A DNA stretch of 43,540 nt from the NCBI GenBank assembly GCA_007123395.1, contig SKLD01000077.1, positions 1 through 43,540 of the forward strand, in the 5' to 3' direction. Below the pieces are notes generated by a model that saw nothing but the letters and a program-made list of their open reading frames with translations, was not told where the DNA came from and did no database searches. Below, in pieces: positions 1-38,290 of the stretch. A program made the translations under genes and the position numbers. Origin of the DNA: Opitutales bacterium. Lineage in GTDB: Bacteria > Verrucomicrobiota > Verrucomicrobiia > Opitutales > Oceanipulchritudinaceae. How positions within the stretch are numbered: the stretch's first letter is position 1; each line of letters begins with the position of its first letter.

Positions 1-3307
<3,307 letters not shown>

Positions 3308-20083: not shown

Positions 20084-21525
20084 CGTGCTGCGCCGCCAAT
20101 GGGCGTGAGACCAAGGACAACCGGACCGGAAGCACCGTGGGCAAGACGGAAGCGTTTTCCACGGCGGGCCATCGGCGCGGAAGGAGGACCGGCGGTCCTC
20201 ACGGCATACTCACCGTAATAGCCGCGGAAACGAACCACCCCTTCGTCATCGGAGACGGCCTCCGCGGTCGTTTTCCACTCACGGTGTATTAGATCGCGGA
20301 TACGATGGAACACGGGGCGGAGTTCGTGGCCGGACCGCTCGCGCCACTCCACCGCCATACCCATGAAGCCCCAGAAGGAAAAGGCCTCCACGGCGGGATG
20401 CCCGAAGGCGACGGTGAGGTAGTTGGCGACGTATTCGGCAAGCAGTTCGTGGAGATCCTTTTCGGGAACGTCCGGGTGCTTTTCGCGGAGGGTCTTAAGG
20501 TGCGCCCAGAACTCGGTGATATGGACCGGCCAGCCGGCCTCCGCGTACTCGTCGTAGACGTCGGTCTGCTCGCGGTGGTGCGTCAACCACCCCGTGTGGG
20601 ACTGGAGACCGAGGGCGTCGGGGGGAAAAGCCATGTCGCGCAGGCGGTCGGCCAACGCGATGTAGCGCGCCCGCTGGGAAGCCGCCGTCACTTCACTGCC
20701 ATCGGAGCCGGTGTGCCCGCGCGACTCGTTTTCGACGCCGTAGTCGTTGAGCAGGTAGAGCGCTTCGGGGTCTTCCTCACGGCACCAGCGCAGGACGGGG
20801 GCGATGTATTCCGCCATATTTTCCGTGCTCTCGATGTGAGGCCAGTGGCGCGCGGCGAGATTCTTCGGAGCGGGCTCCCAGAGGGCTTCGTTGACGGCGT
20901 CCCAAACCGTGACGCGCCCGCGGAAGCGGGCGACAAGGCTGCGCACACGGACCTCGGCGAACTTCATTTGGGTTTCAAGGTCGTAGCGCTTGACCCACTC
21001 CGGCGTGCATTTGTCGATCGACCAAAAGAGCGGGTGCCCTTTTGCCGTGAGGCCGTTGGCGAGGCACCAGTCCACGGTGGCGGCAAAATTTTCCACACGT
21101 TGCTCACCTTGGCGGTCCTCCGTCTTGGAGGCATCGTTGCGGGGCCGCTCCGTCCAGTAGCAGAGGTTTGTCGCACCATTGAAAACATCGAGGAAGCGCT
21201 GGCGCCACGCGCGGCAACGCTCCTTCTCCCACTCGCCGTCGCGCCACATGGCGTCGAGGCCCCAAAGCCCTTCTCCGAAAGTGAAGGCATGGCGCTGTTG
21301 TTCAATGGCGACGGAGACACCTTTGAGCGGATTTCCGCCGCCGTCGACGAGACGCAACGTGGCGTCGCCCATACGGTGGTTCCGGATGCCCTCCCGCGCG
21401 GCGCGCAAGGTGCCTTCGGAGAGCGAGGGATTGTAGAGGTCGCCGCTACGGTCCATGCCCCGCCATTCTTCGCCGTCAGGCGCAGGCGAGGGACCGTTCG
21501 GAAGTCCCTTGGTATTATCTGTCAT
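20080..21525 (-). CDS. GH10-like glycoside hydrolase (xylanase-fold), no signal peptide
   Basis: The sequence shows GHPLFW, VTVWDAVNEA (acid/base Glu context WDVVNE) and WPVHITEFW (nucleophile Glu context ITE). An N-terminal beta-sandwich-like segment reads ATLRLVDGGGNPLKGVSV. Confidence 0.7.
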   Translation of the reverse strand: MTDNTKGLPNGPSPAPDGEEWRGMDRSGDLYNPSLSEGTLRAAREGIRNHRMGDATLRLVDGGGNPLKGVSVAIEQQRHAFTFGEGLWGLDAMWRDGEWEKERCRAWRQRFLDVFNGATNLCYWTERPRNDASKTEDRQGEQRVENFAATVDWCLANGLTAKGHPLFWSIDKCTPEWVKRYDLETQMKFAEVRVRSLVARFRGRVTVWDAVNEALWEPAPKNLAARHWPHIESTENMAEYIAPVLRWCREEDPEALYLLNDYGVENESRGHTGSDGSEVTAASQRARYIALADRLRDMAFPPDALGLQSHTGWLTHHREQTDVYDEYAEAGWPVHITEFWAHLKTLREKHPDVPEKDLHELLAEYVANYLTVAFGHPAVEAFSFWGFMGMAVEWRERSGHELRPVFHRIRDLIHREWKTTAEAVSDDEGVVRFRGYYGEYAVRTAGPPSAPMARRGKRFRLAHGASGPVVLGLTPIGGAAR

Positions 21526-21554
21526 TCTTCTGCGGGGAATTTAGAGGGGAGAAA

Positions 21555-23666
21555 CTAGTAAGCTGTTCCGATAGAGGTCCAGAGGAAGTTGAGGGCGATG
21601 GCGAACATGCCGGTGAGCCCCATACCCGCCATGAATCCCACGGCGAGGATGGGCGTGTAGTTGGTCCACTGTTCGCGGCCGAATTTTTTGGCGAATACGT
21701 AACGCCCGAGGACGGCGCCAAGGAAGATGAGAACGGCGTTGTGCGGGTAGGCGACCATCGCGCCGAGCCCGCCGTAGATGTATTGGGCGCTGATACCGAG
21801 GGCGGCGAACCCGCTGAAAAACGCCAGCGCGGCGACGAGGGAGAATCCGATCAGGCCCGGTTTGAGCGATTCGAGGAGGAGACTCTGTCCCTCCTGCATG
21901 GAGGCGGCCCAGAGCGCCTTCAACTGCGCGAACTGCGGCCAGAACTTCTGTACATAGGGATAATTCTCCGACGGGATGGGACCGAGGCCCACGATGTAGC
22001 TCCAAAAGACAAACGAAGCGACGAGCATGAGGGGGAAAACGAGCAACTCGGCCTGCAGGATGGACGTGAACTTCGTGCGTGTGAGCTGGGTTTCCTTGAG
22101 AAGGTCGGCCATCTGCCCGTAGTTAAAGATGGGCAAGGGAGCGAACCAGATGTTCACCCCGCGGTGCCGGGAGGCGAAGATCGCCGCCTCGGAAACAAAG
22201 GGAATGCCCGCGTGCTGACCGGCGATCCCCGACATCCGCGCGTTGATGTAGGTGTTGATCGGCGAGAACAGAAAGGCGAAGGCGATCAACCACCAGATGC
22301 TGAAGCGCTCGTGTTCCTCAAGGCCGGCGTTGATGAGGTAGTTGGAGAGGACAATGAAACCGATGGAGGAGCCGATCCAAACGGCAAGGGCCACCCACGT
22401 GGGCGGATCGCCGCGCGGGATGTCCCGCTCCCACAGCTTCTTCAGCTCGAAGCCCGCGCCCGGATCACCGGGATCCTTTTCTTCATCGGCTCCCCCGCTC
22501 ATCCGTCGCCCCCGCAGCGCCTTCGAAATGGCTTTGAAGACCCCGTAGAAGCCGACCACCGCAATGGCAAAGGAAGTGCCGATGCCGACTGAAATGTAGA
22601 GGTCAATCTGCGTTGCGACGTGGGTTTCGATGGCGTCCTTCCCCGGTGCCCAACTCGGGATGTACCCCATGCGCTGGAGGATCGGGTTTAGGATGATTTG
22701 GAACGTGATCGCCGTGACAAACATGCCGATGACGATCCGCCATGGAAGAACGAAACCAAAGAAAAGAAGCGCGAGATTCAGACTCAGGCCGATCGTCCCG
22801 GCCGGCAACCAGCGTTCGAACGACGTTGTGAGATCAAGAAACGGGATGGGCAGGAGCTGGATGGGGCGACCGATAAAGGCCGCCGTGAGGGTCGGCACAG
22901 CGATGTAAACGATGCCGAAGACCACCCCCATGATGGCCCCCGCCGAAAAACAATACTGCCGGTAGCTATTCTTGTTTTTGTCCTGGCTGGTCTCGGCGAG
23001 GGCGATGGCCCCTTCCGCCGCAATCGGTGCAAGCGGGAACGGCAGCTTTTCCATGTCCGCCGTGGCTTTGAAGGCGATGAAGCCGAGGGAGAGTTGCGTG
23101 AGCTTGGACAGCAACATCGCCATGAGCATGACCGACAGAGCCGGGAACCATGCGCTGGAGAGAAAGCTTTGGTAGGCTTCCTCGCCGTAGGGCGCGACCC
23201 AGTCCGCCACCTCGTGCGAAATACCGAAGCTGTGGAAGGCCTCCGAATTGCGCATGTAGCGGTGCCAGACGAGCCATGCAAAGACGCCGCCACCAAGCGA
23301 TAATCCCCCCGCCACCGAAGTCAGCTGGCTGGCGGTGTATTTGAGGATGTAGAGTTCCTGCTTGCGCAGGGTGATGAACGCCCGCCGCGAGACCTCGACG
23401 AAGAGAATGATCGTCACCCATTCCGCCGCCGTGCCGAGGTCCTGCCCGATCATCAGCCCCATGAAAATGATGCCCGGGAGCATGACGAAGCAGATGAAGA
23501 ACGCGCCGAGGACTGTGCGCCATGTGAAGCCGCCTTCGTAGGGCTCGCTCTGGATCGCCTCGATGGAGAACTTCGCATCGTAAAAGCTCTCCTGCTTCGG
23601 TTGCTTTTTCTTCTCCGGCTTCCGCGCCTCCTTCGGCGCGGAAGACTTGTCGTTTTCAGCACTCAT
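21555..23666 (-). CDS. 703-aa polytopic membrane protein of unknown function (possibly OPT-superfamily-like)
   Basis: It has a Lys-rich cytoplasmic N-tail (KEARKPEKKKQPKQ) followed by more than 14 hydrophobic segments across the whole length. A charged loop (RGRRMSGGADEEKDPGDPG) lies mid-protein. The start overlaps the stop of the 1853-aa gene (ATGA). Confidence 0.8.
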   Translation of the reverse strand: MSAENDKSSAPKEARKPEKKKQPKQESFYDAKFSIEAIQSEPYEGGFTWRTVLGAFFICFVMLPGIIFMGLMIGQDLGTAAEWVTIILFVEVSRRAFITLRKQELYILKYTASQLTSVAGGLSLGGGVFAWLVWHRYMRNSEAFHSFGISHEVADWVAPYGEEAYQSFLSSAWFPALSVMLMAMLLSKLTQLSLGFIAFKATADMEKLPFPLAPIAAEGAIALAETSQDKNKNSYRQYCFSAGAIMGVVFGIVYIAVPTLTAAFIGRPIQLLPIPFLDLTTSFERWLPAGTIGLSLNLALLFFGFVLPWRIVIGMFVTAITFQIILNPILQRMGYIPSWAPGKDAIETHVATQIDLYISVGIGTSFAIAVVGFYGVFKAISKALRGRRMSGGADEEKDPGDPGAGFELKKLWERDIPRGDPPTWVALAVWIGSSIGFIVLSNYLINAGLEEHERFSIWWLIAFAFLFSPINTYINARMSGIAGQHAGIPFVSEAAIFASRHRGVNIWFAPLPIFNYGQMADLLKETQLTRTKFTSILQAELLVFPLMLVASFVFWSYIVGLGPIPSENYPYVQKFWPQFAQLKALWAASMQEGQSLLLESLKPGLIGFSLVAALAFFSGFAALGISAQYIYGGLGAMVAYPHNAVLIFLGAVLGRYVFAKKFGREQWTNYTPILAVGFMAGMGLTGMFAIALNFLWTSIGTAY

Positions 23667-26600
23667 GCGGTTTGCTTTTCTTCTGTGGTTTCACCGGAAA
23701 GCAGCGCGGCGCCCTGCTTGATGTATTCGGTCCGCGCGGCGGGGGAAAGATTACGCCAAAAAAGGAATTGCTGACGGACGAGGTTGAGGAAGTTGTAGCT
23801 TGTGCGCTGCCAATTGTCCTCGGATCCGGAAAAGCGTGTGAGGACGAGCCGCACGGCGTAGACCCCTTCCGCGTCACCCGGATACATCCGCATGCGGAAC
23901 CGTTGCGCCACATCGAGGTCATACGGGCTCAGCCACATGGACGTCTCCACGACGAGGGCGGGTTGGCCCTCCTCTTCCGTCTGGTCAAGGCTGACCTCGC
24001 GGCAATTGAAATCCTCGCTCGTCGGTTCGGTGTGGTTGAGGAGGAATTGCCGGAAAAACGCGGCCATGCCGACGGCGTTGCCGCGGGTGAGTGTAAAGGG
24101 CAGGTCGAAGCGGATGGCGCCGTCGTCACCCGGAGGCGGCAGTTCCCACGCGGCCATCCCGCTCGGCGCGGCGAGGGCGGCCGCCTGCTTCGCGGGGATG
24201 AGCGTCGCCATGAGCACGACGAGTCCCGTGCCGGCCGCGAGGAGCATGGAGAGCATGGACGTGAAGTTGAAGGACAATCCGCTCAAGAAGGCGATGTCGG
24301 CGGCATTCAGGCCTTGCACGATATTGGCGAAGAGCAGCCCGCCAAACGTTCCAAGAACAATGCCGAGGATCGAGAAAACCGTTGATTCCGAGAACATTAA
24401 AAAGGCGATCTGGCGCGGGGAGAGCCCGATGGCTCCGAGCATTCCGACCTCGCCCCTGCGCTCCTCCACCGTTCCGAGCATCGTGTTCATGACAATGAGA
24501 ATACAGAGAATGATGGGTAGAACGACCTTGGCGACACCGGCCATGTCGAAGGTCTGGCGGGGCACGACAAAACTCACCGCGCCATCCGAATGCGCGAAAA
24601 ACGGTCGGTTGAGCCGCAGCGCGATGTCGTGGAAAAATTGCTCTTGGTCCACACCCTCGGTGAAACGCAGGGCAACGGCGCGGATCTTCGCGCCCACGTC
24701 GTTGCGGGCCGCGTGGGGCACGATGGCGAGCCGCGTCCAGTTCATGTGGAAGGAATCCCCTTCCTGCTCCAGTTCGCCGCTGACGGCGGGGTGCATGCCG
24801 CTGCGGAGGTAATCCACCATGGCCAAACTGCGACCGTTGATATCGCGGATGCGGTTGGCCTTTTCCGTGTTGAGAATACCGATCACACTCCACTCATGCC
24901 CGCTCATGCGCACCTTCGGCAGTTCCGCTTCCGACCGCCGGTTGCCCGCGTCATCGAGGAGGTCGTCGGCTTGGATGCTAAGCGTGCGGGCCGCGACATC
25001 GGGCAATATGACGCTGAAGCGCTCGGGAGGCACAAGCGTGCCTTCCTCGTCAAAGCGTTCCGGCAAGAACCATTGCCCGCCCGTCACTGCTTCGTGCAAA
25101 CGGCTGAACTCCGGCTCGTTGGGCTGGAAGACCATTATGCCCGTGAGGATATGGGTCGTTTCCGCGTGATGGACGGGAATCTGGTTCACGCCCTCGCGCG
25201 CGGCGTTGTTGCCGCCCTCCACTTCGAGATAATGCGCCCGCACGGTGATGCCAAGGGTGTCACCGAACTCTGTTTCGAGGGCGTTCACGGCGCCGACCGG
25301 AAACTCGACCCACTGGAAACTACGGAAGAGCACGCCTTCGTAGGCCGGGGGCAACGGCTCCACATGCTCGCCGTCGACAAAGGTATCCAGCGCGACCGAC
25401 GCGCGCGAGACCGTGTCTTCGCCCGTCACGGCGACGAATGCGATAATGGAGAAGGTTAGCGCCGTCACCGTGAGAACGGTGAGAACGGTGCGGAACATGC
25501 GCTTGCGCAGGTTCGACACGCCGAGGGAAAAGGCCGTCGAAAGGGAGCTGAAGAAGGAAATCTCCTCGCTCTCCACCTCGCCCGAGGCGGAGCGGAACCG
25601 GCGCAGCAGGACTTCAAAACGCTGGTAACAAATCCCGATGACGATGAGCGACATGAGAATCATCGTGAAGGCGATCACGACAATGAAGGGCGAAAGCGCG
25701 ATGCGGAAGGCGGGGTGGAAGTAATTGAGGAAAAGCGTTCCCGCCGTGAAGATACCGGCCGTCCAGCCGAGTTTGGAAACAATGCCCTTGGATTTTGTGA
25801 AAAGAGACTGGAAAAACCACGCCGCGGGCACGAGGAAAGCCATGAGAAGAATTACGGAGAAAACGGCCTCGCGTCCGAGTTGCAGGACACGCGGGTAGTT
25901 TTTCACGAGGATTCCCCACGCCTCGCGGGAAGACCCGACGACGCCCATCCAATCGCGTTCCGCTTTGGCGGCATGCGCTTCAGCCAGCTTATCCCGGCTG
26001 CGTTCGACGGCGGCGTCGAGGACGCGCGAGGAAATCCCAAATGCGCGGTAAAGGTCGAGTCGCTGGCCCGCCAAGGCGGCCATCTGTTCCGCGATATGCA
26101 GAGGCGTCAGGGCAAGGTAAATGTTGCGGTCGCCGTCCGGACCGGGGCCGACCGAGATGCCCGCGCCGCGCGACTGGGTGACCCCGTCGGTTTCCACCTC
26201 GCCGACCAGAAGCATGCGGTGATGCGCGCCGCGCCGCACGACCGCGCGGAACCGGCTGTCCAAGGGCATGTGAATGGTGATGCCCTCGACATCCGGTTCA
26301 CGGAAGTCAGCGAGCGGGTTGTCCACCGCGAAGTCGCGCGGTTCGCCATCGATCACCGCGTCGATGAGTTCCACGCGGGAGGGACCACGCGCCGCGCCGC
26401 CGATGGAATCGTAGGAATGCGGATCGGTGCCGGGAAAAATGACTTTTGGATACGTGTCGATGAGGACAAGATTTCGTTCCAGCTCCGCGCTGCGGCGGTA
26501 TTGGAAATCGTTTGTCTGCGGTTGTGTTCCCACTTGCCCTTGCGTCATCACCTTGCGGAAAAGGCCCTCTTCGCGGTCCAACCAATAGGCGAAGACCACC

Positions 26601-29224
26601 GGGCGTGAGCGGAACCGCTGTGTCTCCAACGGCATCCGGAACGAGCCGTTGAGGAGGGTGATCGCGACCACTCCGCGTCGGTAGCCGAAAAATCCATACA
26701 CATTGTCATCGATAAACGCGCCATCGGCGGGATCGAGGGGCAGATAGACGTAGGTGCCCGCGACGGGGTCCCGCGCGTCGATGCCCGAGCGGATGTTGAA
26801 CTGGGTCGTGCGCCCGACCAAGCGGGACATTTCGCGCCGCAGGACGGTGGCATCGACGGAAGAATCGACCGGGCTCTCGGCGGCGAGTTTGGACAAGGTG
26901 AGGACCGTTCTCGCCTGCACGGAAACATTCTCGAAACGCACGCTTTCCAGCGTGTCCGCGGGAGTGTCGAGGAGAGGCGTGCGGTCGTTTTTGCCGCCCA
27001 TGGGCAAAAGAAGCACATCCCCGTAGAGCCAGAAGTCATCGTACAGAGGCATCGGCCTTGTGGGGATGAGGGCGAGGTTGGCCCGGTCGTCCGTGGAGAT
27101 AAACGTGAAATCCTCATCCCATCCGGCATGGGTGGCGGCATAGGCCGCCACCTCCCGAAGGCGCGGGTCGACACGACGCAGGAACGGATCTCCGCGACCG
27201 CCGCGGAGGCGGTCGGACGAGCCGAAAGTGGTGCCGATGGTGTGGCTGCCGTCGAGAACATCGAGCTGCCAACCCATCGCGAGACGGCCCGAGCCGTGGC
27301 CGCGGAGACGCGCCAGCAGCGCTTCGGCGATCTCCAGATTATTCTCATGGTTCTCGCGTGTGAGCCGCTCTTCCGCCAGCTCGCGCTCAAAGACCGCACG
27401 CAGGGACTCACGGTCAAGACCATACCCGCGCAGGCGCTCGCGCTTCTCCGGATCGTCGAGAATATCGGCGAAGGCACGGAGCCGTTCCCGCCCGGAGACC
27501 CGTAGATCGAGGCTGCGCATGCGCACGTCGACGATGAAATTGAGTTCCGCCTCGATCGCCCGCCGCCGTTCCAGAGCGGCCTTGCGCTCCTCCTCCGAAA
27601 CCGCGCGGTTGAAGGCGAGCACCTCCGGGATGCGGCGTTCCGCAAGGCTGATACGCACCTGCTCAAGCTGGTCCATGAGCCATTCGTCGGCCATCCAATA
27701 AGCCGCGTCCTCGCTCTGTGGCGGCCCCTCGCCCCGTATCCACGGGAGGGCCTCGTTATAGCGCCGCAGGACACCCTCGGCGTCGACCGCCGTCGTGCCG
27801 CCGCTGAGCGTCAGGCCGCCTTGGTGCTCGAGGAAATATTCCGCGAGAAGGCGGCTCCCCTGCCCGCCCAGCGTGTCGCCGTCGATGAAGCCGAAGACAA
27901 TGCCGCGGCGGCGGTTGACAAAGCGGCTCGTGGCAAAGTGCTCCATGAGGGTGAGCGCGGAAGCGAGATTGGCCATGGCCCGGGCTCCGTGGGGCGCGTC
28001 GGGAACGACGGAGGCGCTGTCGATCGGTGCGGTGAAGACCAATGGCACGGCGCGGTTGGGGATGAGGAGCGAGGTTCCGGGTCGCAGCGGCGCGTCGGGA
28101 GGGAGATCGTTCGCCGCGAGGATTTCCGCCGCATCGGTGCCGTAGAGGGAGGAGAAGCGACCGATCAGTTCGCCTTCCCGCACGGTGTGGGCGCCGCGCC
28201 CGCCCGGCAAGAGAAGACGCTGCCCCGCTTCGAGTTCAGGGGACTCCAAATCATTCGCGGCGAGAACATCCTCCGCCGTGAGTCCAAAATCCGAGGCGAT
28301 CAGCTCGAGGAGGGTCGATTCCGTGATCTCAACACGAACTGGATCGGTGGGCGGGAGATACGCGAAAAGACTCTCCACGGGGCGTTCCTCATAGACATTG
28401 CCGCCCTGAATACGGGCGGAGGCGGGGTTGCCGCCATCGAGCATGCGCGCGGCATTTTCACGGCCCGCTTCCACCATGCCCGCGCCCGTTTGCCGGTCGA
28501 TGTAGAACCGCGGATACGGGTTGGGGGTGCTGCTGAAAAGCATACGTGCGTTGCCGTATTGCACAAAATCGTCCTCCACCACGACCACGGCGACCGCGCC
28601 AAGCGAAAAGAGACGCTCCAAACGCCGCCCGCCGGCGAAGTCCATGACAGCCACCGCGCCGTCGAGGTCCAGCCCGCGCAGGTCATCCCAGCGCGCTTGG
28701 CGGACGTAGAGCAAGGGCCCTTCCAAACCCTCCCGCGGCGTGAGCGACGGCATGGGTCCGTTCGGCCAGAGCGGATGGACGTCCCAGCGTCTGCTTTCAA
28801 AGACAACGTGGGCGCGGTCGCGCCGCTCCTCGGCGGAGAGCAAATGATCGAAAGCGACCGGGGCGGCCACGCGGTCACGGAACGAACCGATGTATTCGAG
28901 ACCGTGTTCCTCCAGATCGGCGATGCGCCCGCGCAGGAATTCATGGATGGGCGAGCGCCCGTTTTCGAGGACGGTGCGCGCGCCGATGGCGGGTACGTCG
29001 AGGTCGAGAAGCTCGGCCGTGAGGGCGCGGATCGTTTCGGGCCGGGTGTCCTCCGCGATTTCGTTGAGCGAGGCGGTGGAGAGGGCTTCAAGCACCTCGA
29101 GCTGCTTGACCTGGGACGGGCTGATACGCGCGGCGATCTCCTCGTTGAAGGAGGCATGGGCCGACGAAAGAGCGGACGCCGCCGCGATGAGCAGAATGAA
29201 CGTGTTGCGGAAGCCGGTGTTCAT
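23663..29224 (-). CDS. 1853-aa fusion protein: signal peptide, PA-like domain, two LysM repeats, degenerate M28-like domain, helical region and large ectodomain, three TM helices, complete MacB-like module (TM1, periplasmic domain, FtsX domain), and a 165-aa cytoplasmic tail
   Basis: The ATG at 29224 (MNTGFRNTFILLIAAASALSSAHA) overlaps the upstream TGA by 1 nt. The PA-like segment is LDLDGAVAVMDFAGGRRLERLFSLGAVAVVVVEDD. The LysM repeats lie at nt 28058-28330. The M28-like segment is GIVFGFIDGDTLGGQGS. MacB TM1 is LRKRMFRTVLTVLTVTALTFSIIAFVAV (module nt 23666-25510). The FtsX domain is VVLPIILCILIVMNTMLGTVEERRGEVGMLGAIGLSPRQIAFLMFSES...LIPAKQAA (nt ~24176-24535). Confidence 0.9.
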   Translation of the reverse strand: MNTGFRNTFILLIAAASALSSAHASFNEEIAARISPSQVKQLEVLEALSTASLNEIAEDTRPETIRALTAELLDLDVPAIGARTVLENGRSPIHEFLRGRIADLEEHGLEYIGSFRDRVAAPVAFDHLLSAEERRDRAHVVFESRRWDVHPLWPNGPMPSLTPREGLEGPLLYVRQARWDDLRGLDLDGAVAVMDFAGGRRLERLFSLGAVAVVVVEDDFVQYGNARMLFSSTPNPYPRFYIDRQTGAGMVEAGRENAARMLDGGNPASARIQGGNVYEERPVESLFAYLPPTDPVRVEITESTLLELIASDFGLTAEDVLAANDLESPELEAGQRLLLPGGRGAHTVREGELIGRFSSLYGTDAAEILAANDLPPDAPLRPGTSLLIPNRAVPLVFTAPIDSASVVPDAPHGARAMANLASALTLMEHFATSRFVNRRRGIVFGFIDGDTLGGQGSRLLAEYFLEHQGGLTLSGGTTAVDAEGVLRRYNEALPWIRGEGPPQSEDAAYWMADEWLMDQLEQVRISLAERRIPEVLAFNRAVSEEERKAALERRRAIEAELNFIVDVRMRSLDLRVSGRERLRAFADILDDPEKRERLRGYGLDRESLRAVFERELAEERLTRENHENNLEIAEALLARLRGHGSGRLAMGWQLDVLDGSHTIGTTFGSSDRLRGGRGDPFLRRVDPRLREVAAYAATHAGWDEDFTFISTDDRANLALIPTRPMPLYDDFWLYGDVLLLPMGGKNDRTPLLDTPADTLESVRFENVSVQARTVLTLSKLAAESPVDSSVDATVLRREMSRLVGRTTQFNIRSGIDARDPVAGTYVYLPLDPADGAFIDDNVYGFFGYRRGVVAITLLNGSFRMPLETQRFRSRPVVFAYWLDREEGLFRKVMTQGQVGTQPQTNDFQYRRSAELERNLVLIDTYPKVIFPGTDPHSYDSIGGAARGPSRVELIDAVIDGEPRDFAVDNPLADFREPDVEGITIHMPLDSRFRAVVRRGAHHRMLLVGEVETDGVTQSRGAGISVGPGPDGDRNIYLALTPLHIAEQMAALAGQRLDLYRAFGISSRVLDAAVERSRDKLAEAHAAKAERDWMGVVGSSREAWGILVKNYPRVLQLGREAVFSVILLMAFLVPAAWFFQSLFTKSKGIVSKLGWTAGIFTAGTLFLNYFHPAFRIALSPFIVVIAFTMILMSLIVIGICYQRFEVLLRRFRSASGEVESEEISFFSSLSTAFSLGVSNLRKRMFRTVLTVLTVTALTFSIIAFVAVTGEDTVSRASVALDTFVDGEHVEPLPPAYEGVLFRSFQWVEFPVGAVNALETEFGDTLGITVRAHYLEVEGGNNAAREGVNQIPVHHAETTHILTGIMVFQPNEPEFSRLHEAVTGGQWFLPERFDEEGTLVPPERFSVILPDVAARTLSIQADDLLDDAGNRRSEAELPKVRMSGHEWSVIGILNTEKANRIRDINGRSLAMVDYLRSGMHPAVSGELEQEGDSFHMNWTRLAIVPHAARNDVGAKIRAVALRFTEGVDQEQFFHDIALRLNRPFFAHSDGAVSFVVPRQTFDMAGVAKVVLPIILCILIVMNTMLGTVEERRGEVGMLGAIGLSPRQIAFLMFSESTVFSILGIVLGTFGGLLFANIVQGLNAADIAFLSGLSFNFTSMLSMLLAAGTGLVVLMATLIPAKQAAALAAPSGMAAWELPPPGDDGAIRFDLPFTLTRGNAVGMAAFFRQFLLNHTEPTSEDFNCREVSLDQTEEEGQPALVVETSMWLSPYDLDVAQRFRMRMYPGDAEGVYAVRLVLTRFSGSEDNWQRTSYNFLNLVRQQFLFWRNLSPAARTEYIKQGAALLSGETTEEKQTA

Positions 29225-32122
29225 CAGTAGAGAGCGGGTATGTAGGGGACGTATTCGAGGAAGGTTCTGGCGAAGGCACCGGGATTGTCCACATGGCGGG
29301 CGTAAATGCCGCAGACCAAGTGGATCACGTTCCATGTGAAAATACAGACGACCGAGCCGACAACGAGACCGACGAAAAACGGCTTGGCACGCTTGTAGGA
29401 AGTCATGCCGCCGTATTTGACGATCAGTTTTTTAAGGAGCCACGCGACAAGCGCGCCGCCCCAGAGTGTCGAGCCTTGCACGATCCGTTCTTCACCGGTG
29501 CCTATGTAGGGAGACACCCATGCGTAGTGAATGCTCAAAAGGAGCAGCAAGTAGCCGACGGGATGCAGCGGAAAGCGGAGGAATTTTTGGCGAAGGTAAA
29601 GCAGCAGGCCGATGACGGCGGCCCCCACGCCGATGGCACCGATGCGCAACCAGTTGGGTGAATCAAATTGGTCGAGCCCGGGTTCGCCGAGAAAGTGGGA
29701 AACCCAGAGGGGATAGGTGGCGAGCTGCTGGCCTCCCGGTTGACCGGCGTGGGGCGGCAGCGCCTCTCCGCCGAAGAAGTCATGGCCGATGTAAAAAGTA
29801 AAGAGAAGGTAGCTCAGAAGGCCGACGCCGACCGCCGTTGCGAAGGAGAAGGCGCCGCTCACCGCGACCGTGCGGAAGGAGATGCGGTAACGCCGCGCCA
29901 GCTCCATGTTCTCCAGTTGCTGCGGCAGCGTGCGGAAGAGCAGCGTCATGGGCAGGAAAACAATGTTCACAAAGGCCGCGTAATTCTTTGCTCCGGACAT
30001 GCCGGTGAGACCGAGGACGATGGGCAGTTTGGTGTTTTCGTAAAAAACGTGCGTGGTGGGAAGCCCGGTCTCAGCGCGCACGCGCGCGGCCGCGACGGTC
30101 ACCGCGAGCAGAGCGATGCTGAAAGCGCTGAGGAGCGCGATACTGCGCACGCCGAGGCTCCAGAGCAGGGCGAGAATCACCGCCGGCGCGATGATGAGAC
30201 CCCAGCGGGTGAGGGCGGGCGGGAGGTAGGCCTCCGCTTTTTCGGCGGACGTTTTGGGAACGGTCGCGTTTTGGCGGCTCTTCCAAATCATGAAGACCGC
30301 GAAAACAAGGCAGGCCCCGAGCATCTGCTCCATCGGCCACGGATAAAAGCGCCCGTCGCCGAAACCCGTCCAGCCGCTGTCCTGCAGATTCGGGAACATC
30401 AGGCGGAAGACCCAACTAATCCCGATGTAGAGCAGAAACGTTGCCCAAATGGCGAAGCCGACCTCAAGACTGAGGAGAAAGACGAGCCCGACGACAATGG
30501 GCGAGAGCACGAAAACCATCGTCGGCACCTCGCGCAACGCCCCACCCGCCTGCGCGAAGATTTCGTCGTTGAAGTGAAAATAAAAGGAAGCGTCGGCGGC
30601 GAGAAACCCGTAATGTCCCAAAGCCTCGAAAAAGAGCATCAGAAAACCAACGGCGAAACCCATCATGGCGAGCGGATAGAAGGCGCGGCTGCGCCGTTCG
30701 GGATTGGTTCCATCGCCTCCGAGTTCGAGGCGGTAGTCGTGCCGGATAATGTTGTCGGCGATTTCGACGAGCGGAAAGGCGAGATTTTCCCGGCTCACCC
30801 ACTTGCGGCGGAAGAACTCCGCGAGGCACATGAGAAAGAAATAGAAGGCAAAGAAGAGCACCGTCCACGAGAGGAACGGACGCACATACAGAGCCCATGG
30901 AATGCCGTCCACAAGGGTGGCGAAATTCTCCCGCCAGCCCGCGCGTTCCCGCGCGTCGCGCGCTTGCGAATCGGCCCAGAGGCTGTGCTCAAGGGCCCAC
31001 AGGTTTTGGTTCGGTCCCACTTCCCCGTCCTGCCGCACGAGCGCGCGGCGCTCCTCGCGCGAGAGGCGGAAGGAAAAGCTGTTGCGTTCGGCGTCGAACT
31101 CACCCCGCGACAGCTCCTCCATCCGCGAGGTTTCCCTCAAGCGGACACGGTCGCGCAATTCGTCGCGGTCGGAGAAGGCCAGCGCCGCGACACGGGCGCG
31201 GACCTCCGCCTCGCGCTCCTCCAAGCGGGCGACAACCGCCTCCTTCGCTTCGCGTCGGGCGGGATCGAGGCGCCCCGTCTCCTCCATCAGGCGCTCGCGG
31301 GCGCTGAAGTCCATCGCCTCCACATTGGACGGCAACAGACTGGCGTGCCATTCGTTGATTCCTTCGAGATCGTCCCGCAGGGCCTCCATGGCGCGGCGGC
31401 TCGCCTCGGCGGTGGCTGTGGAATGCTCCCGCAACAACTCGAGAAGTCCCAATTCCGCGAGGATCTCGTCCATGCCGAGGCCGCGGATCTCCTGCGCGCC
31501 GTCGAAGCTCAGCTCACCCACCCGCTCGCGCAGAGCGACGAGTTCTTCGTCCGACGGATCCGTGCGCGCCCGTTGCAGGAGATCCCGCCGCATCAACTCG
31601 TCCGTGAGCACGAGGGCGAGGGTGCGCCGGGCGTCGCGCTGCCGACGGGCCTCGGCATCGTCCTCAAGGAAGCGGAGAAGGCGGTCCGCCCGGTTCCACG
31701 CGAGCCCCTCAAACGTCGGCACTTTGGGAAACCAACGATCATCGAGGACATCGTAGGCCGTGCGGTAGGTTGAGGTGCCCTCGATCATATACTCCCGCAT
31801 GACGGCGTGCGTCGCGTTGAAAAACGGGCGCATGAGCCCCAAATTCATCACCGGCACGGCGATCGCGAGCATCGTGTAGAGGAGCGCCAGTTCGGCGCGG
31901 CTCCACAAATCGCGCTTCGCGAGGGTGCGCACGGCGAGCCCCGCGAGAGCGAGACTGAAAACAATCCCCACGACCCAGCCCGCCGGGGTCGTCGTTTCCA
32001 TCGCGGAGTTGATGGTGAGAATCGTGAGGAATTGTGCCAGCGGCGTGATCACCGCAATCAACAGCAGTCCGGAGACCACCGTCAAAACGGGCCGAATTCC
32101 CTCGCGGGGGGCGGGCGCGCCC

Positions 32123-32847
<725 letters not shown>

Positions 32848-32851
<4 letters not shown>

Positions 32852-33642
32852 GCCTTGTTCTCCTCCTCGAACTCATCGATCTTGATGTCCACCTCGTCGC
32901 GGCGCGCCAGCTTCTTCACCCGCCCGTCCTCCATCCACATGATGCGGTCGGATATATCGAGCATCTTGTGGTCGTGCGTGGAGCAAATGACCGTCACGCC
33001 TTCCTCGCGGTTCATCTCTTTCATGAGTGCGATGATCTCCTCGCCGGTATGCAAATCGAGGTTGGCCGTGGGCTCGTCGGCGAGGATAATGGCCGGTTTG
33101 TTGGCGAAGGCGCGGGCGATGGCCACGCGCTGTTGCTGCCCGCCGGAAAGCTCCTTGGGCGTGTGCAGAAAGCGATCGCCAAGCCCGACACGCGTGAGGA
33201 TTTCGACAGCGCGGTTTTGCGCCTCGTCCTGCGGCACGCCCGCGAAAAGCATGGGCAGCATGACGTTTTCGAGCGCCGTCATGACCTTCACGATGTTGTA
33301 GCTTTGGAAAATATAGCCGATCTTACGGCAGCGCAGCCATGCGAGTTCGCCCGCGTCGAGCTGCGCGATATCGATTTCATCGATGTAGACGCTCCCCGCG
33401 GAAGGTTTCATGAGACCGCCCACGACATTGAAAAAGGTCGTCTTCCCAGAACCCGAAGGCCCCATGATGGAGATATATTCGCCCGTGAAAATCTGCGCGT
33501 CCACCCCTTGGAGGGCATGGATTTTTTCGCTTCCCATTTCATAGACGACTTCGACCCCCCGCGCCATGACGGTGCAATCGACCGCCTGCGAAAGATCGGC
33601 CATCCAGTAATCGGCCTTTGTTTTGGCTGCTGCTTCCGGCAT
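32848..33642 (-). CDS. ABC transporter ATP-binding protein, MacB/LolD/FtsE-type (NBD 1)
   Basis: The motifs are Walker A GPSGSGKTT, IGYIFQSYNI, LSGGQQQRVAIARA, ILADEPTANLD and STHD. It has an extra ~25-aa N-terminal extension and an acidic C-tail (DEFEEENKA). GGAG lies 5 nt upstream of the ATG. Confidence 0.95.
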
Positions 33643-33651
33643 CGCTTCTCC

Positions 33652-34239
33652 TTATTTTTCCCCCCGCATGGCTTCTACCGGCGGCATCCGTGCGGCCACC
33701 GCTGCCGGAAAAGCCGCTCCGAGCGTCGTCAACCCGAGGCCGACGAGGGCCGCCACGATCACTTTCCACCAAAGACCCGTCCAATAGGCCGCCGCAAAGA
33801 CCCCGGCGCCCGCTTCGAGCAGGCCGACAAGAGTGGAAAGGACGAGGCCGCCGATGATGCCAAAAACCGCACCCGTAAGTCCGAGAAGGGCCGATTCCAA
33901 CATCACACTGAGCATGACGAACGAATCCAACGCGCCGAGGCACTTGATCGTGCCGATCTCGCGGTAGCGCTGCGTCACGGACATCAGCATGGTGTTGAGC
34001 ACGCCCGCCACGCTCACCAGCAAACTCAAGGTGATCATGAGCCCCCACATCTGCCGCTCCGCCGGATCATCCGATATCGGCGCCGTGAGCAGGAAGAGAA
34101 GAAAGGCGCAACACGCCGCGACCGTCAAAAGCGTCAACAATGTCCGGCCCATGCGTAACTTCAGGCTGCTCAAAGCCATAGACCAAACAAGCTCCGGCTT
34201 AAGGCGTAGTCGCTTTATTTCCCATAGATTTCGGGACAT
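33652..34239 (-). CDS. Minimal FtsX-family permease (195 aa, 4 TM, essentially no periplasmic domain)
   Basis: TM1 is LRMGRTLLTLLTVAACCAFLLFLL. After only about 15 aa comes the FtsX domain: MWGLMITLSLLVSVAGVLNTMLMSVTQRYREIGTIKCLGALDSFVMLSVMLESALLGLTGAVFGIIGG...FPAAVAARMPPVEAM. Confidence 0.85.
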   Translation of the reverse strand: MSRNLWEIKRLRLKPELVWSMALSSLKLRMGRTLLTLLTVAACCAFLLFLLTAPISDDPAERQMWGLMITLSLLVSVAGVLNTMLMSVTQRYREIGTIKCLGALDSFVMLSVMLESALLGLTGAVFGIIGGLVLSTLVGLLEAGAGVFAAAYWTGLWWKVIVAALVGLGLTTLGAAFPAAVAARMPPVEAMRGEK

Positions 34240-34490
34240 GTGGGTTCTTAATCAGGTGTTCAGGGGGCGATTGTGCGCAGAAAACATCGATAGAAACAGA
34301 GTATGCACGAGGTTTGTCAACCAGATACGGCGGCCTCAGGACTGCGACGCAAAATGTCCTAACAATGGCGGTATTAGGCCTGTAAACAAAGGGCTGGGAA
34401 GGCTACACTCGCCTCGACAAGCCATAAATCCCCGCTTGACACGGCGCCCTCACGCTGCCGTCTCAACCCCGATCCCGTGACCACCTCCAA
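34240..34490. promoter_or_regulatory. Divergent intergenic control region between the ABC/FtsX cluster and the 712-aa secreted-protein operon
   Basis: This is a 251-bp gap, AT-richer than the flanks. TTGACA hexamers are present on both strands (about 34434 on plus, about 34311-34320 on minus), but I could not pair either with a convincing -10 box. Confidence 0.3.
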
Positions 34491-36629: not shown

Positions 36630-36663
36630 CCCACTCCCGATCCCGTTAAAATACATCCGGACA

Positions 36664-38223: not shown

Positions 38224-38290
38224 GCTCGATAGGGGGGTCGTTTTCCGTGTTCCGTTGACACCGTCGGCGCGAAAATATTCCTGTTTATGC

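Follow-up and report, generated by a model that had tools for sequence, protein, structure and literature searches.

The window analysed here is a 43,540-nt stretch of DNA from an uncultured Opitutales bacterium, in which six minus-strand genes are tightly packed between positions 21555 and 34239. An ORF check on the sequence agreed with the coordinates and strand that a first-pass annotation, made from the sequence alone, had given for these genes, and the five junctions it described were found again when read from the sequence letters. The gene for a minimal 195-aa FtsX permease is separated from that of the ATPase NBD1 by a 9-nt gap carrying GGAG; NBD1 and a second ATPase gene, NBD2, share an ATGA overlap; NBD2 and the gene for a 978-aa polytopic protein overlap by 38 nt; the latter meets the gene of a giant 1853-aa FtsX fusion at TGATG (1-nt overlap); and another ATGA overlap joins the giant to the gene for a 703-aa polytopic protein. 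Overlaps of stop and start codons, present at four of the five junctions of this set, suggest translational coupling, although they do not demonstrate the stoichiometric co-translation that had also been claimed. GC3 was 0.74–0.81 in five of the six genes checked and in three downstream genes, as expected for real genes of this genome. The 5' boundary of the operon is a divergent plus-strand gene: the true neighbour upstream seems to be ORF 34491–36629 on the plus strand, with a GC3 of 0.82 against 0.66 for the minus-strand ORF overlapping it, and the nearest minus-strand ORF lies 134 nt from the operon 5' end. The divergent intergenic region (34240–34490, no strand assigned) is the probable promoter region, and a promoter scan found no sigma-70 consensus site in it.

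The 195-aa permease (33652–34239, minus strand; Pfam FtsX PF02687, E 9e-18) has four TM helices in the hydropathy profile and lacks a periplasmic domain, since its TM1-TM2 loop comprises only about 15 residues. Two ABC ATPases of the LolD/MacB/DevA/FtsE class follow, namely NBD1 (264 aa, 32848–33642, minus strand; Pfam ABC_tran, E 3e-32) and the distinct NBD2 (242 aa, 32123–32851, minus strand; Pfam ABC_tran, E 2e-30). NBD1 contains GPSGSGKTT, LSGGQQQR, ILADEPT and THD, and Walker A, LSGGQ, Walker B-Glu and the H-loop are intact in both proteins, which share about 53% identity and are thus two different ATPases, as had been proposed. The top NCBIfam matches of NBD1 are LolD, DevA and MacB, all under the equivalog cut-offs, and its orthologues are 75–80% identical between phyla. 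The Pfam searches suggested in the first-pass annotation placed FtsX in the 195-aa and 1853-aa proteins and ABC_tran in both ATPases. The FtsX pair is as unequal as had been described, with a bare four-TM module on one side and, on the other, the giant with a TM1-TM2 loop of about 295 aa.

The giant is encoded at positions 23663–29224 of the minus strand, as defined by translation, hydropathy and Pfam matches to FtsX and LysM. Its length of 1853 aa follows from a start at the ATG overlapping the TGA upstream, against 1890 aa for the longest ORF; the shorter version has a signal-peptide-like N-terminus and agrees in length with the homologues, of which 45 are full-length. A signal peptide (aa 1–24) is followed by a periplasmic arm (aa 25–1110), three extra TM helices, the FtsX module and a C-terminal domain. 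Comparison of the family profile with PDB proteins returned LysM proteins (E 5e-16), YtrF, LolF, LolC, LolE and MacB, the PA-domain aminopeptidase 2ek8 (E 5e-6), nicastrin (E 1e-4), a NAALADase-like protein (E 0.01) and nicalin (E 0.03). The large LysM-bearing ectodomain seen at first pass is real, exceeding 1,000 aa and containing two LysM domains together with PA-like and M28-like segments. The PA-like segment (aa ~160–260) lies upstream of the M28-like, nicastrin-like segment, which the family profile against PDB places at aa ~392–520 (27665–28051, minus strand); relatives that pass Pfam Peptidase_M28 have matches mapping to giant aa 285–465. The LysM pair (aa ~305–426; 27947–28312, minus strand; Pfam LysM, E 1.5e-13 in two stretches) is inserted within this M28-like domain. 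In an alignment to the M28 consensus judged by eye, the columns that appear to correspond to the zinc-ligand positions are not conserved in the giant, and the segment is probably non-catalytic. Beyond it the arm continues as a long helical and beta region in which Pfam detected no family. LysM matches were absent from several members of the clade and from every distant (non-PVC) giant inspected; as judged from these homologues, LysM is lineage-specific and not a defining part of the system.

In the membrane half of the giant, the three extra TM helices (aa ~1113–1198; 25631–25888, minus strand; hydropathy) carry residues invariant in the family alignment, including an H1170-P-A motif. The FtsX module (aa ~1235–1690; 24155–25522, minus strand) consists of TM1, a periplasmic core domain of about 295 aa and TM2-TM4, with the Pfam FtsX match at aa 1606–1713 and the YtrF/LolC/MacB matches of the family profile at aa 1497–1666. 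The TM1-TM2 loop of the giant itself has no Pfam match, and MacB_PCD matches in relatives map to aa 1357–1476. The C-terminal domain (aa ~1690–1853; 23666–24157, minus strand), predicted to be cytoplasmic, has 15 positions that are invariant even in relatives at 23–32% identity. Searched alone, it matched nothing in Pfam, PADLOC or PDB sequences.

One question is whether this domain is a sensor. On this view the giant would fall into the "CARF_m8 LolE_TM" group, one of the listed sensor families with a CRISPR or defence association: PDLC01991 ("CARF_m8--CARF_LolE_TM") matches aa 1068–1825 with E 2e-45, PDLC01990 ("CARF_Beta-galactosidase_LolE_TM") matches with E 2e-17, and the conserved C-terminal domain is about the size of a CARF domain. 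The system might thus be a signal-controlled or defence effector, in which a cytoplasmic CARF-like domain senses a nucleotide signal and gates the membrane machine. However, the PDLC01991 match is carried by the TM core (extra and FtsX helices), the last ~130–230 positions of the PADLOC profile are unmatched, and neither the C-terminal domain nor the periplasmic core, each taken alone, gave a PADLOC match at E<=1. The profile of the C-terminal domain found neither CARF nor any other PDB protein, and no cas, cyclase or other defence genes were present in any inspected locus. A defence function is accordingly highly improbable; by this sequence comparison the model covers the membrane core of the giant only. 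Distant giants also match the PADLOC models (E 3e-64 and 1e-36), indicating that giant ectodomain-FtsX fusions have already been catalogued.

The 978-aa protein (29224–32160, minus strand) contains both Pfam families that had been named for checking, DUF6785 (E 9e-47) and DUF6784 (E 2e-19). It has an all-helical soluble insertion of about 300 aa at aa ~110–420, whereas DUF6785 orthologues outside PVC lack it and are ~640–670 aa long. Its AlphaFold model (pLDDT 83, pTM 0.85) had as only significant PDB fold matches the HvYS1 structures 7wst/7wsr (E 6e-4, probability 1.0; next match E 0.36). The 703-aa protein (21555–23666, minus strand) is likewise a divergent permease-like protein with a predicted OPT fold: it reached no Pfam family, OPT included, but its model (pLDDT 74, pTM 0.76) also found only 7wst/7wsr with significance (E 2e-9, TM 0.55–0.64; next match E 0.03). 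Some members of its family and distant orthologues do pass Pfam OPT, one distant orthologue with E 1e-17. Of the large subunits it is the best conserved, with 59–65% identity between Verrucomicrobiota and Planctomycetota. The two polytopic families have the motif E[KN]L[PA]FPL in common, and hhalign linked them weakly (probability 11%). These models support an OPT fold of the Yellow Stripe 1 type for both proteins, so that the OPT hint of the first-pass annotation holds at fold level. HvYS1 (barley Yellow Stripe 1, OPT family) is a homodimeric proton-driven elevator importer (PMC9691689).

Homology searches found the same gene set in dozens of genomes of different phyla and no characterised system orthologous to it. 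As to the co-occurrence that the first-pass annotation had wished to see examined, the 703-aa gene follows the giant in 36/36 and DUF6785 precedes it in 31/31 PVC-type loci, and NBD2 is present in 26/26. Two orders occur, FtsXs-NBD1-NBD2-DUF6785-giant-703 and NBD2-DUF6785-giant-703-FtsXs-NBD1 (FtsXs, small FtsX), and the set survives the rearrangement between them; in both, the NBD1 orthologue is always with the small FtsX and the NBD2 orthologue always directly upstream of the DUF6785 gene. In distant lineages (L089, L092) a trio was found again, made up of the DUF6785 protein, the M28-FtsX giant and the OPT protein; its linkage persists there at 25–40% identity, and this trio is, on the loci compared, the conserved core. 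By these comparisons the arrangement is far beyond chance. The system is nevertheless sporadic, at least 164 of 185,579 species being matched by the search patterns, which set a lower bound.

The genes could also be mere neighbours, an ordinary MacB-type exporter and two independent OPT-type secondary transporters that share an operon and form no machine. Operons can combine unrelated transporters, some lineages have the NBDs and small FtsX apart from the trio, and in Fimbriimonadales a 703-family gene stands alone, so that an adjacent giant is not required for the OPT-like protein to work. Against this, the giant keeps its two polytopic neighbours in every PVC-type locus counted, the linkage outlasts both rearrangement and great divergence, stop and start codons overlap at most junctions, and no known MacB-type protein has a role for the family-invariant extra TMs and C-terminal domain of the giant. 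We consider chance cohabitation very unlikely. The overlapping or nearly abutting genes, the PVC counts, the survived rearrangement and the distant trio argue instead for one functional unit, and, judged from synteny, the six proteins may form one complex.

Literature and database searches found no description of this system in papers, PDB entries or NCBIfam models; literature full-text searches returned nothing on DUF6785/6784 and nothing joining type VII ABC systems with OPT proteins. An ABC motor with an OPT-fold pair would thus be a combination for which we found no studied counterpart. What is new here is the OPT fold predicted by the models for both polytopic proteins, the co-conservation counts, the two gene orders, the distant trio and the 3' extension described below. 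As in MacAB-TolC, LolCDE, FtsEX, YbbAP-TesA and YtrEF, there are four-TM FtsX modules, a TM1-TM2 loop that forms a periplasmic core domain (in the giant) and NBDs of the LolD/MacB/FtsE class; the TM core of the giant aligns with structures of YtrF, LolF, LolC/E and MacB (E 1e-9 to 4e-12), and a hetero-FtsX pair is also found in LolC/LolE. In contrast to those systems, there are two different NBD genes instead of one, one FtsX partner wholly lacks a periplasmic domain, the giant is fused to a ~1,100-aa N-terminal arm, three extra TMs and a C-terminal domain that is conserved, linked genes for a MacA/HlyD adaptor, LolA or an EnvC-type partner are absent, and two OPT-fold proteins are obligately linked. 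In accordance with the claim that no Lol, MacAB or FtsEX counterpart is present, Lol, MacB and FtsX NCBIfam equivalog scores were all far under their cut-offs, and by Pfam the operon has neither a MacA/HlyD-type adaptor nor a BceB-type permease. BceB is a single 10-TM polypeptide whose partners are a histidine kinase and a homodimer of BceA, and only one of its two FtsX modules has a large extracytoplasmic domain. The asymmetric FtsX pairing is thus common to both, but here each module has its own gene, the two NBDs are unlike, a linked two-component system is absent, and there are also OPT-fold partners and an M28/PA/LysM arm. PA-like and M28-like segments also occur in nicastrin, nicalin, transferrin receptor and GCPII; nicastrin-type M28 members are known to be non-catalytic, and the zinc-ligand positions of the giant likewise appear non-conserved. 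The giant differs from this group in being bacterial and fused to an FtsX permease, with two LysM inside the M28-like domain and a long helical and beta continuation. Known OPT proteins act alone as proton symporters and not beside an ABC motor. Among OPT/Yellow Stripe-like proteins (Pfam PF03169), HvYS1 is the only significant fold match for both polytopic proteins and is ~13% identical to the 703-aa sequence; it is a homodimer, whereas each locus here has two different OPT-fold genes, one with the 300-aa helical insertion.

Very probably the transcription unit reaches 3' as far as position 16938, because a GH10 gene lies only 29 nt from the 703-aa gene and is followed through ATGA overlaps by two further genes. 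The first encodes a GH10-family glycoside hydrolase of 481 aa (20080–21525, minus strand; Pfam Glyco_hydro_10, E 3e-24), whose N-terminus has no hydrophobic segment and hence no signal peptide, and whose sequence contains WDAVNE and ITEF, presumably the GH10 catalytic motifs, which are apparently intact. The second encodes a 632-aa protein without a signal peptide (18185–20083, minus strand) and without a significant Pfam match, the sub-threshold hints being Heparinase II/III C-terminal (E 0.16) and PL35 chondroitinase (E 0.008). The third encodes a GFO/IDH/MocA-family oxidoreductase, also without a signal peptide (16938–18188, minus strand; Pfam GFO_IDH_MocA, E 6e-19), whose true start is likely the ATG at 18188, overlapping the upstream stop as ATGA. 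GH10 adjoins the system in L001, L009, L011, L016, L033 and L044 and lies upstream on the opposite strand in L045; the 632-aa protein is syntenic in L001, L009, L011 and L044. By this synteny the three-gene extension is clade-specific. GFO/IDH/MocA and GH genes adjoin the system in unrelated lineages as well, the former in L005, L089 and others.

The reading that we favour, tentatively and at a little under even confidence, is an ATP-driven arm that captures cargo and delivers it to an OPT-fold pair for import, as one conserved machine of the cytoplasmic membrane. The giant would pair with the minimal FtsX as a heterodimeric type VII ABC motor, and NBD1 and NBD2, both catalytically competent to judge from their motifs, would form the ATPase pair; this pairing is suggested by the constant linkage of NBD1 to the small FtsX and of NBD2 to DUF6785 and the giant. 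The DUF6785/6784 and 703-aa proteins would plausibly associate as a heterodimer, analogous to the homodimer of Yellow Stripe 1. ATP binding and hydrolysis would act by mechanotransmission through the periplasmic core domain and move the ~1,100-aa arm (PA, non-catalytic M28/nicastrin-like, in this lineage two LysM, helical and beta regions), which would capture an oligomer derived from the envelope or environment, possibly a glycan, glycopeptide or peptide, and pass it to the OPT-fold pair for transfer across the cytoplasmic membrane. A binding, non-catalytic arm is suggested by the LysM domains, by nicastrin and nicalin among the closest M28-type matches, by the non-conserved metal-ligand positions and by the ligand-binding insertions (Reg_prop or PDZ) of some 703-family members. 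The absence of LysM from many family members, the solitary 703-family gene of Fimbriimonadales and the weak hhalign link speak against this reading.

Peptidoglycan is another conceivable target of the arm. FtsEX systems use catalytically dead partners such as EnvC, and a LysM-anchored pseudo-peptidase arm could similarly activate or position peptidoglycan hydrolases while the OPT pair imports muropeptides or stem peptides. Such a wall-remodelling controller would agree with the two LysM domains, with the JGI annotation of homologues as "MepM/NlpD", with peptide transport by OPT proteins and with an M28/nicastrin-like domain that could recognise peptide termini; polytopic co-factors, SweC/SweD, are also reported in one paper (PMC6705773). 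It is distinctly unlikely, however. Many PVC members and all distant giants inspected lack LysM, so that binding to peptidoglycan does not define the system; amidase, LytM or NlpC/P60 genes accompany it in none of the loci; NCBIfam models for FtsX score far under their cut-offs; and a sporadic distribution speaks against a role in division.

The direction of transport bears on a further alternative, in which the motor would extract or push a lipid-linked glycan, lipoprotein, exopolymer or peptide outward, with the OPT-fold proteins as conduit or flippase and the LysM/PA/M28-like arm as a peptidoglycan-anchored scaffold or hand-over station. MacAB-TolC, LolCDE, FtsEX and YbbAP-TesA all work outward or in the periplasm, and we know of no type VII ABC system that assists an importer, the characterised ones expelling, extracting or activating periplasmically. 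The YbbAP-TesA study names the same four E. coli systems. The TM core of the giant, nearest to YtrF, LolF, LolC and MacB, the possible anchoring through LysM and the bidirectionality, in principle, of elevator transporters also fit such an export or envelope-assembly machine. Yet the sole matched OPT-family structure is that of HvYS1, a proton-driven importer; the remaining characterised OPT members also import, and no OPT-family exporter is known to us. Moreover, no glycosyltransferase, polymerase or other biosynthetic gene is linked in any inspected locus, no membrane-fusion or outer-membrane partner is linked except for a porin gene at L090, the enzymes co-transcribed here are of catabolic type without signal peptides, and sporadic spread makes a core envelope function unlikely. 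We therefore regard export as unlikely and return to import, to which HvYS1, the three signal-less enzymes (GH10 included) coupled to the operon 3' end and the recurrence of GFO/IDH/MocA and GH genes beside the system in unrelated lineages all point. The glycan-catabolic neighbours are a weak association, since they are clade-specific and PVC genomes are rich in such genes anyway. In this clade, imported cargo would then meet the GH10 enzyme, the 632-aa protein and the oxidoreductase.

Open reading frame calling recovered all six minus-strand genes proposed in the first-pass annotation, in an array spanning positions 21555–34239. From 5' to 3' these genes encode a small FtsX protein of 195 aa (33652–34239), two ABC ATPases, NBD1 (264 aa; 32848–33642) and NBD2 (242 aa; 32123–32851), a DUF6785-DUF6784 protein of 978 aa (29224–32160), an FtsX fusion of 1853 aa, hereafter named the giant (23663–29224), and an OPT-like protein of 703 aa (21555–23666). 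The five junctions, which had been described as a 9-nt gap carrying GGAG, an ATGA overlap, a 38-nt overlap, a TGATG overlap and an ATGA overlap, were read as such in the sequence. The longest possible ORF of the giant gene would encode 1890 aa. The ATG at 29224, which shares one base with the upstream TGA and opens a signal-peptide-like N-terminus (MNTGFRNTFILLIAAASALSSAHAS), gives 1853 aa, a length in agreement with that of a 98%-identical homologue (100% coverage).

Third-position GC was 0.74–0.81 in the five of the six genes that were checked and in three genes located downstream on the same strand. These are a GH10 gene (20080–21525), placed 29 nt after the 703-aa gene, a 632-aa ORF (18185–20083) and a GFO/IDH/MocA gene (from its true start at about 18188 to 16938), the last two each joined to the preceding gene by an ATGA overlap. 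Since the tight packing runs on through these genes, the operon likely consists of nine genes (16938–34239). No signal peptides were found in the three encoded enzymes, whose genes in the window's clade are linked translationally to the operon's 3' end, and by our own reading of the motifs both catalytic glutamates are present in the GH10 protein. The 5' boundary is set by a divergent plus-strand ORF (34491–36629; GC3 0.82) and the 3' boundary by a convergent IS200-like ORF. The divergent ORF (712 aa) has gene-like codon-position GC, gave no Pfam match and has its upstream intergenic region in common with the operon. Large FAD_oxidored (PF12831) genes flank the region at 4927–7821 (minus strand) and 36310–38223 (plus strand). 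Minus-strand ORFs upstream of the operon, at 34374–35255 and 35604–38514, were discarded as shadows of plus-strand genes on the basis of codon-position GC and Pfam; those at 35604–38514 are accounted for by the FAD_oxidored gene at 36310–38223. A scan for promoters and terminators was uninformative, the counts being at the level of shuffled sequence.

The presence of two different NBDs and two very different FtsX subunits, claimed earlier from the sequence alone, was confirmed by Pfam, motifs and TM layout. Pfam FtsX (PF02687) matched both the small FtsX (E 9e-18) and the giant (E 1e-13). According to hydropathy, the small FtsX has four TM segments with a TM1–TM2 loop of only about 15 residues, and it is an FtsX module without a periplasmic domain; the same loop spans 295 aa in the giant. 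NBD1 and NBD2 matched ABC_tran, and their top NCBIfam matches were LolD, DevA, MacB and FtsE, all under the equivalog cut-offs. The Walker A motif (GPSGSGKTT), a Q-rich LSGGQ motif (LSGGQQQR), Walker B with the catalytic Glu and the H-loop are kept in both; judged by these motifs, neither site is degenerate, and the two are predicted to be active, non-identical ATPases. A profile of 23 members of the giant family, searched against PDB sequences, aligned to YtrF, LolF, LolC/E and MacB structures (E 4e-12 to 1e-9). The TM1–TM2 loop of the window giant gave no Pfam match itself. MacB_PCD (PF12704) reached 44.5 bits in the giant of the related locus L089, and the matches of relatives map to aa 1357–1476 of the window giant, so that this loop is probably a MacB-type periplasmic core. 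At superfamily level the locus belongs to the type VII (MacB/FtsX-type) ABC systems, and it is predicted to work like them.

One important question is whether the locus is a variant of a characterised type VII system; the first-pass annotation had recognised no counterpart and had noted a mismatch with Lol, MacAB, FtsEX and BceAB. The window system failed the specific test for each of these. In MacAB-TolC the NBD is fused to the MacB N-terminus and a gene for MacA (HlyD family) is present, whereas each NBD here has a gene of its own, no member of the HlyD or biotin-lipoyl families was found in the operon or the related loci inspected, and the MacB equivalog model gave 40–212 bits against a cut-off of 966. 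LolCDE has a single LolD, in contrast to two distinct NBD genes here; the lolCE model scored 38.6 bits (cut-off 362) and the LolD model 220–230 (cut-off 308). The BceAB family has one 10-TM BceB permease, a BceA homodimer and a linked BceRS two-component system. Instead of that single permease gene, the window carries FtsX modules on two genes together with two different NBDs, and the operon encodes no histidine kinase or response regulator. Finally, FtsEX is near-universal and single-copy, whereas the window system, followed through its 703-aa protein family, was detected in at least 164 of 185,579 species (pattern scan, one genome per species). FtsX models gave 20–32 bits against cut-offs of 225–255 and FtsE 195–198 against 265; a controller of wall remodelling that acts like FtsEX, combined with recycling, is decidedly improbable as an explanation. 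No paper on DUF6785 or DUF6784 was found in the literature, nor any that joins type VII ABC or FtsX proteins with OPT or M28, and for the two polytopic proteins there is no solved structure and no NCBIfam equivalog. The view that the system has no described counterpart was thus upheld by the failed equivalog tests and the literature search. What is new is a type VII ABC system with an unprecedented set of partners and an unprecedented subunit asymmetry.

Hydropathy and homology divide the giant into a signal peptide, a periplasmic arm (aa 25–1110), three extra TM helices (aa 1113–1198), a cytoplasmic linker, FtsX TM1 (aa 1247–1265), the 295-aa periplasmic loop, TM2–4 (aa 1561–1686) and a C-terminal domain of 165 aa. 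The LysM-bearing ectodomain expected from the first reading was found: Pfam LysM matched two stretches of the giant (50.9 bits; cut-off 20.9), and LysM proteins of the PDB matched the giant family profile with E 5e-16. The same profile matched a PA-domain aminopeptidase (E 5e-6; aa 162–219), nicastrin (E 1e-4; aa 383–454), a NAALADase-like protein (E 0.01) and nicalin (E 0.03) in the PDB. In Pfam searches with sub-segments of the giant, matches to PA (E 0.23) and nicastrin (E 0.086) stayed below threshold, and aa 760–1110, the periplasmic core loop and the C-terminal domain gave none. Peptidase_M28 was not detected by Pfam in the window giant. It is passed by distant relatives, in which the match spans only the first 81–92 of the 193 profile positions, and through the family alignment it maps to aa 285–465 of the window giant; by this mapping, the LysM pair interrupts the M28-like domain as an insertion. 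When the M28 consensus is aligned by eye, the positions of its zinc ligands read P-I-D, G-A-R and D-T in the window giant, and they vary across the giant family. The co-catalytic zinc ligands and Glu that we take to characterise an active M28 aminopeptidase (H, D, E-E, D/E, H) were not found. We infer from these residues that the M28 segment is probably a non-catalytic, nicastrin-like binding module, and the arm as a whole appears to be a large periplasmic structure built of binding-type modules. Residues invariant in the family were present in the extra TM helices and the C-terminal domain even in relatives at 20–25% identity, and no relative of the C-terminal domain was detected in Pfam, PADLOC or PDB sequence searches. 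Three homologues (P0014, P0039 and P0041) carry an insertion with two hydrophobic, TM-like segments, aligned after about aa 480 of the window giant; if membrane-inserted, these would change the topology of the arm.

Two PADLOC models matched the giant, namely CARF_m8--CARF_LolE_TM (PDLC01991; aa 1068–1825, E 1.9e-45) and CARF_m8--CARF_Beta-galactosidase_LolE_TM (E 2e-17). Giant ectodomain-FtsX fusions of such type have therefore been catalogued before, and the second model implies that some members carry a beta-galactosidase-like rather than an M28-like arm. The two matches would also speak for a CARF-linked sensor or defence effector. However, the PDLC01991 match comes from the TM core and leaves the final stretch of the profile unaligned, the C-terminal domain alone matched nothing in PADLOC or the PDB (CARF included), and no locus inspected has a defence context. 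The reading as a defence system was dropped because it is the TM core that carries the match, and a CARF-linked role is extremely unlikely.

In the 978-aa protein, DUF6785 (PF20581; 160.2 bits against 25) is followed by DUF6784 (PF20580; 70.4 against 26.4). DUF6785 was found in all 94 homologues, and both domains in all of them except three shorter or partial ones. The 703-aa protein gave no Pfam match, OPT (PF03169) included, even at E<=1. Among its close family members only 2 of 26 reached Pfam OPT (best 1.3e-8), and the distant orthologues P0231, P0270 and P0300 passed this model. PDB sequence searches with both polytopic proteins and with the 703-family profile found nothing. AlphaFold2 models of good quality were built from 36-sequence alignments, with pLDDT 73.8 and pTM 0.76 for the 703-aa protein and pLDDT 83.0 and pTM 0.85 for the 978-aa protein. 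When these models were compared with the PDB by Foldseek, the barley transporter Yellow Stripe 1 (HvYS1; 7wst and 7wsr), a member of the OPT family, was the sole significant fold match for both. The 703-aa model matched 7wst with E 1.8e-9, probability 1.0 and TM 0.55/0.63, its HvYS1 matches ranging over TM 0.55–0.64 (next match E 0.03). The 978-aa model matched 7wst with E 6.4e-4, probability 1.0 and a target-normalised TM of 0.55, with a range of 0.50–0.55 for HvYS1 (next E 0.36). These matches, together with the relatives of the 703-aa protein that pass OPT, indicate that both partners are, by predicted fold, members of the OPT superfamily, the 978-aa protein being otherwise filed under DUFs. 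The OPT relation for which a profile check had been proposed thus found its support at the level of the fold, and the window 703-aa protein failed the Pfam model. BLASTP showed no similarity between the two partners and hhalign of their family profiles gave a weak collinear match (probability 11%), so that their kinship rests on the modelled fold, not on sequence. The DUF6785 protein contains an insertion of about 300 aa (aa about 110–420), modelled with confidence as entirely helical, which is missing from the DUF6785 orthologues of roughly 640–670 aa outside PVC. A large insertion also occurs in P0167, P0174, P0186 and similar 703-family members of 800–1080 aa (L092, 9925–12690; L093, 184–3435), after about profile position 575, with Reg_prop or PDZ matches; P0167 belongs to a DUF6785-giant-OPT trio and P0186 stands alone.

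In word-indexed searches the giant had 45 homologues, from Opitutales, Oceanipulchritudo and Phycisphaerae, and the 703-aa protein had 521. An exhaustive profile search gave 947 cluster representatives of the 703 family at 50% identity, 339 of them with E<=1e-30. Among the matches listed, all 80 genomes were metagenome-assembled, the taxa were Opitutales/Puniceicoccaceae, Phycisphaerae, Planctomycetaceae, Victivallales, Armatimonadota/Fimbriimonadales, Firestonebacteria and Latescibacterota, and the nearest to the window were Opitutales MAGs with a 94–96% identical 703-aa protein.

Synteny was analysed by searching every fetched locus with the window proteins (tblastn), and counts refer to PVC-type loci. 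The giant lay directly upstream of the 703-aa gene in 36/36 loci, DUF6785 upstream of the giant in 31/31 and the NBD2 orthologue upstream of DUF6785 in 26/26; the co-occurrence of the 978-aa and 703-aa genes with the giant, proposed earlier as a check, was therefore observed throughout. Two gene orders were found, FtsXs-NBD1-NBD2-DUF6785-giant-703 (order A, that of the window; FtsXs, small FtsX) and the commoner NBD2-DUF6785-giant-703-FtsXs-NBD1 (order B). In both, the small FtsX keeps the NBD1 orthologue (75–80% identical across phyla) at its side, and DUF6785 and the giant keep the NBD2 orthologue (about 70%). Conservation was highest for NBD1, followed by the 703-aa protein (about 62% between phyla), the small FtsX (about 55%), and the giant and DUF6785 (about 40–45%). 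Outside PVC the giants are shorter (1460–1640 aa; M28, MacB_PCD and FtsX, with LysM absent) and still lie directly upstream of an OPT-like gene. A short DUF6785 gene often precedes them (L089, L092, L060, L078, L081 and L086), and one small FtsX and one NBD are sometimes nearby (L068, L074, L080 and L082–84). In Fimbriimonadales the OPT-like gene was found alone: at L059, L061, L063–L067, L069–L071, L073, L075 and other loci of Armatimonadota/Fimbriimonadales, no giant, DUF6785, small FtsX or NBD lay within 10 kb, and several had GFO/IDH/MocA genes nearby. The trio of DUF6785, giant and OPT-like genes is the core conserved across phyla, which in PVC bacteria is extended by another specialised NBD, by the two LysM domains and by the helical insertion. 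A MacB/FtsX-type module with two NBDs and two FtsX proteins is genetically locked to two non-identical OPT-fold proteins. If the genes were independent neighbours with no common machine, this synteny would hardly persist through rearrangement and across phyla, as it does, and such an explanation is very unlikely.

The 3' end of the window operon is abutted by the IS200/Y1-transposase-like ORF (15840–16847, plus strand), and at 2169–4646 in L001, a relative with 65% identity, a phage-type integrase and a Y1_Tnp-like gene abut the 5' end. Together with the 60–65% identity of the 703-aa protein between phyla, these neighbours hint at lateral transfer of the cluster. L001 and L090, both from JGI sample 3300059090, lie on contigs of 3.69 Mb and 5.04 Mb, each of which carries all six genes, arranged as order A in one and as order B in the other. 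This sample may be a defined enrichment or co-culture, and is a possible experimental entry point.

Clustering of the neighbours at 88 loci showed, beyond the six genes, recurrent GFO/IDH/MocA, GH10, 632-aa protein and GH2-like genes, a signal-peptide protein of roughly 620–670 aa in Phycisphaerae, and PqqD-like and WD40-like genes in Armatimonadota. None was universal in this set, and GFO/IDH/MocA and glycoside-hydrolase genes recurred beside the system in unrelated lineages. In four Armatimonadota loci (L068, L080, L083 and L084) the gap between the OPT-like gene and the small FtsX holds a small PqqD-like protein (E 1e-8 with Pfam PqqD) and a conserved protein of 280–340 aa with no family assigned. 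A weak PqqD match was also obtained with two giants, P0044 and P0045. PqqD domains usually bind peptides in RiPP pathways.

We infer the function of the locus from these data, and favour, at somewhat less than even chances, a machine for capture and import. ATP-driven mechanotransmission would move the arm, which would seize or present an oligomeric substrate, and the OPT-fold pair would then carry it inward. The parts would form one complex, in which the partner of NBD1 would be the small FtsX and that of NBD2 the giant, and the two OPT-fold proteins may associate in the manner of YS1 protomers. HvYS1 works as a homodimer and is a proton-driven importer of the elevator type (PMC9691689). Import is favoured because this one matched OPT structure is an importer, because three signal-less enzymes, including a GH10 protein with, as we read its motifs, both catalytic glutamates, are linked to the 3' end in this clade, because GFO/IDH/MocA and glycoside-hydrolase genes recur in unrelated lineages, and because some family members carry ligand-binding insertions (Reg_prop, PDZ). 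We also know of no OPT-family exporter. On the other hand, to our knowledge no type VII ABC system assists import, the catabolic neighbours are not universal and LysM is lineage-specific. A machine acting outwards, in extraction or assembly, is a rather unlikely alternative. Regarding the cargo of the favoured importer, LysM and the context of GH10, GH43-related and GFO genes point to glycans, and the OPT, M28 and PA ancestry to peptides; both clues would fit a glycopeptide, for example a muropeptide.

A more far-reaching proposal, which we regard as unlikely, is a hybrid primary-secondary transporter class in which a type VII ABC motor would be structurally coupled to an OPT heterodimer for SusCD-independent import of large substrates, possibly with CARF-like gating. 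Here ATP hydrolysis in the cytoplasm would give the nicastrin-like arm the power to capture, unfold or thread a large polymer of the periplasm, and the polymer would enter through a heterodimer of elevator-type OPT-fold secondary carriers. This would constitute a SusCD-independent uptake route in PVC bacteria and Armatimonadota.

As far as is known, type VII ABC systems are not numerous, and every one so far characterised has opened new envelope biology (efflux, lipoprotein sorting, division, lipid extraction). The present system, conserved in Verrucomicrobiota, Planctomycetota, Lentisphaerota, Armatimonadota and candidate phyla, would be the first coupled to OPT-fold carriers and the first with two specialised ATPases and a domain-less FtsX partner. 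DUF6785 and DUF6784 gain a predicted fold (OPT) and a genomic context, and a sizeable unannotated family, that of the 703-aa protein with its 947 representatives, is assigned to the OPT superfamily. If the import reading is true, it bears on the uptake of large substrates in polymer-degrading PVC bacteria without SusCD systems.

Elsewhere in the window, a 1645-aa plus-strand ORF (38123–43060) combines a Lamin Tail Domain, PA14, CHB_HEX_C/Fn3-associated and CotH kinase-like domains. A peroxidase-family gene (944–3307, plus strand; 787 aa, two matched stretches), probably a catalase-peroxidase, an HTTM-domain protein (8984–10558, minus strand) and a PAP2/vanadium-haloperoxidase-like protein (10704–11960, plus strand) are apparently unrelated to the system.
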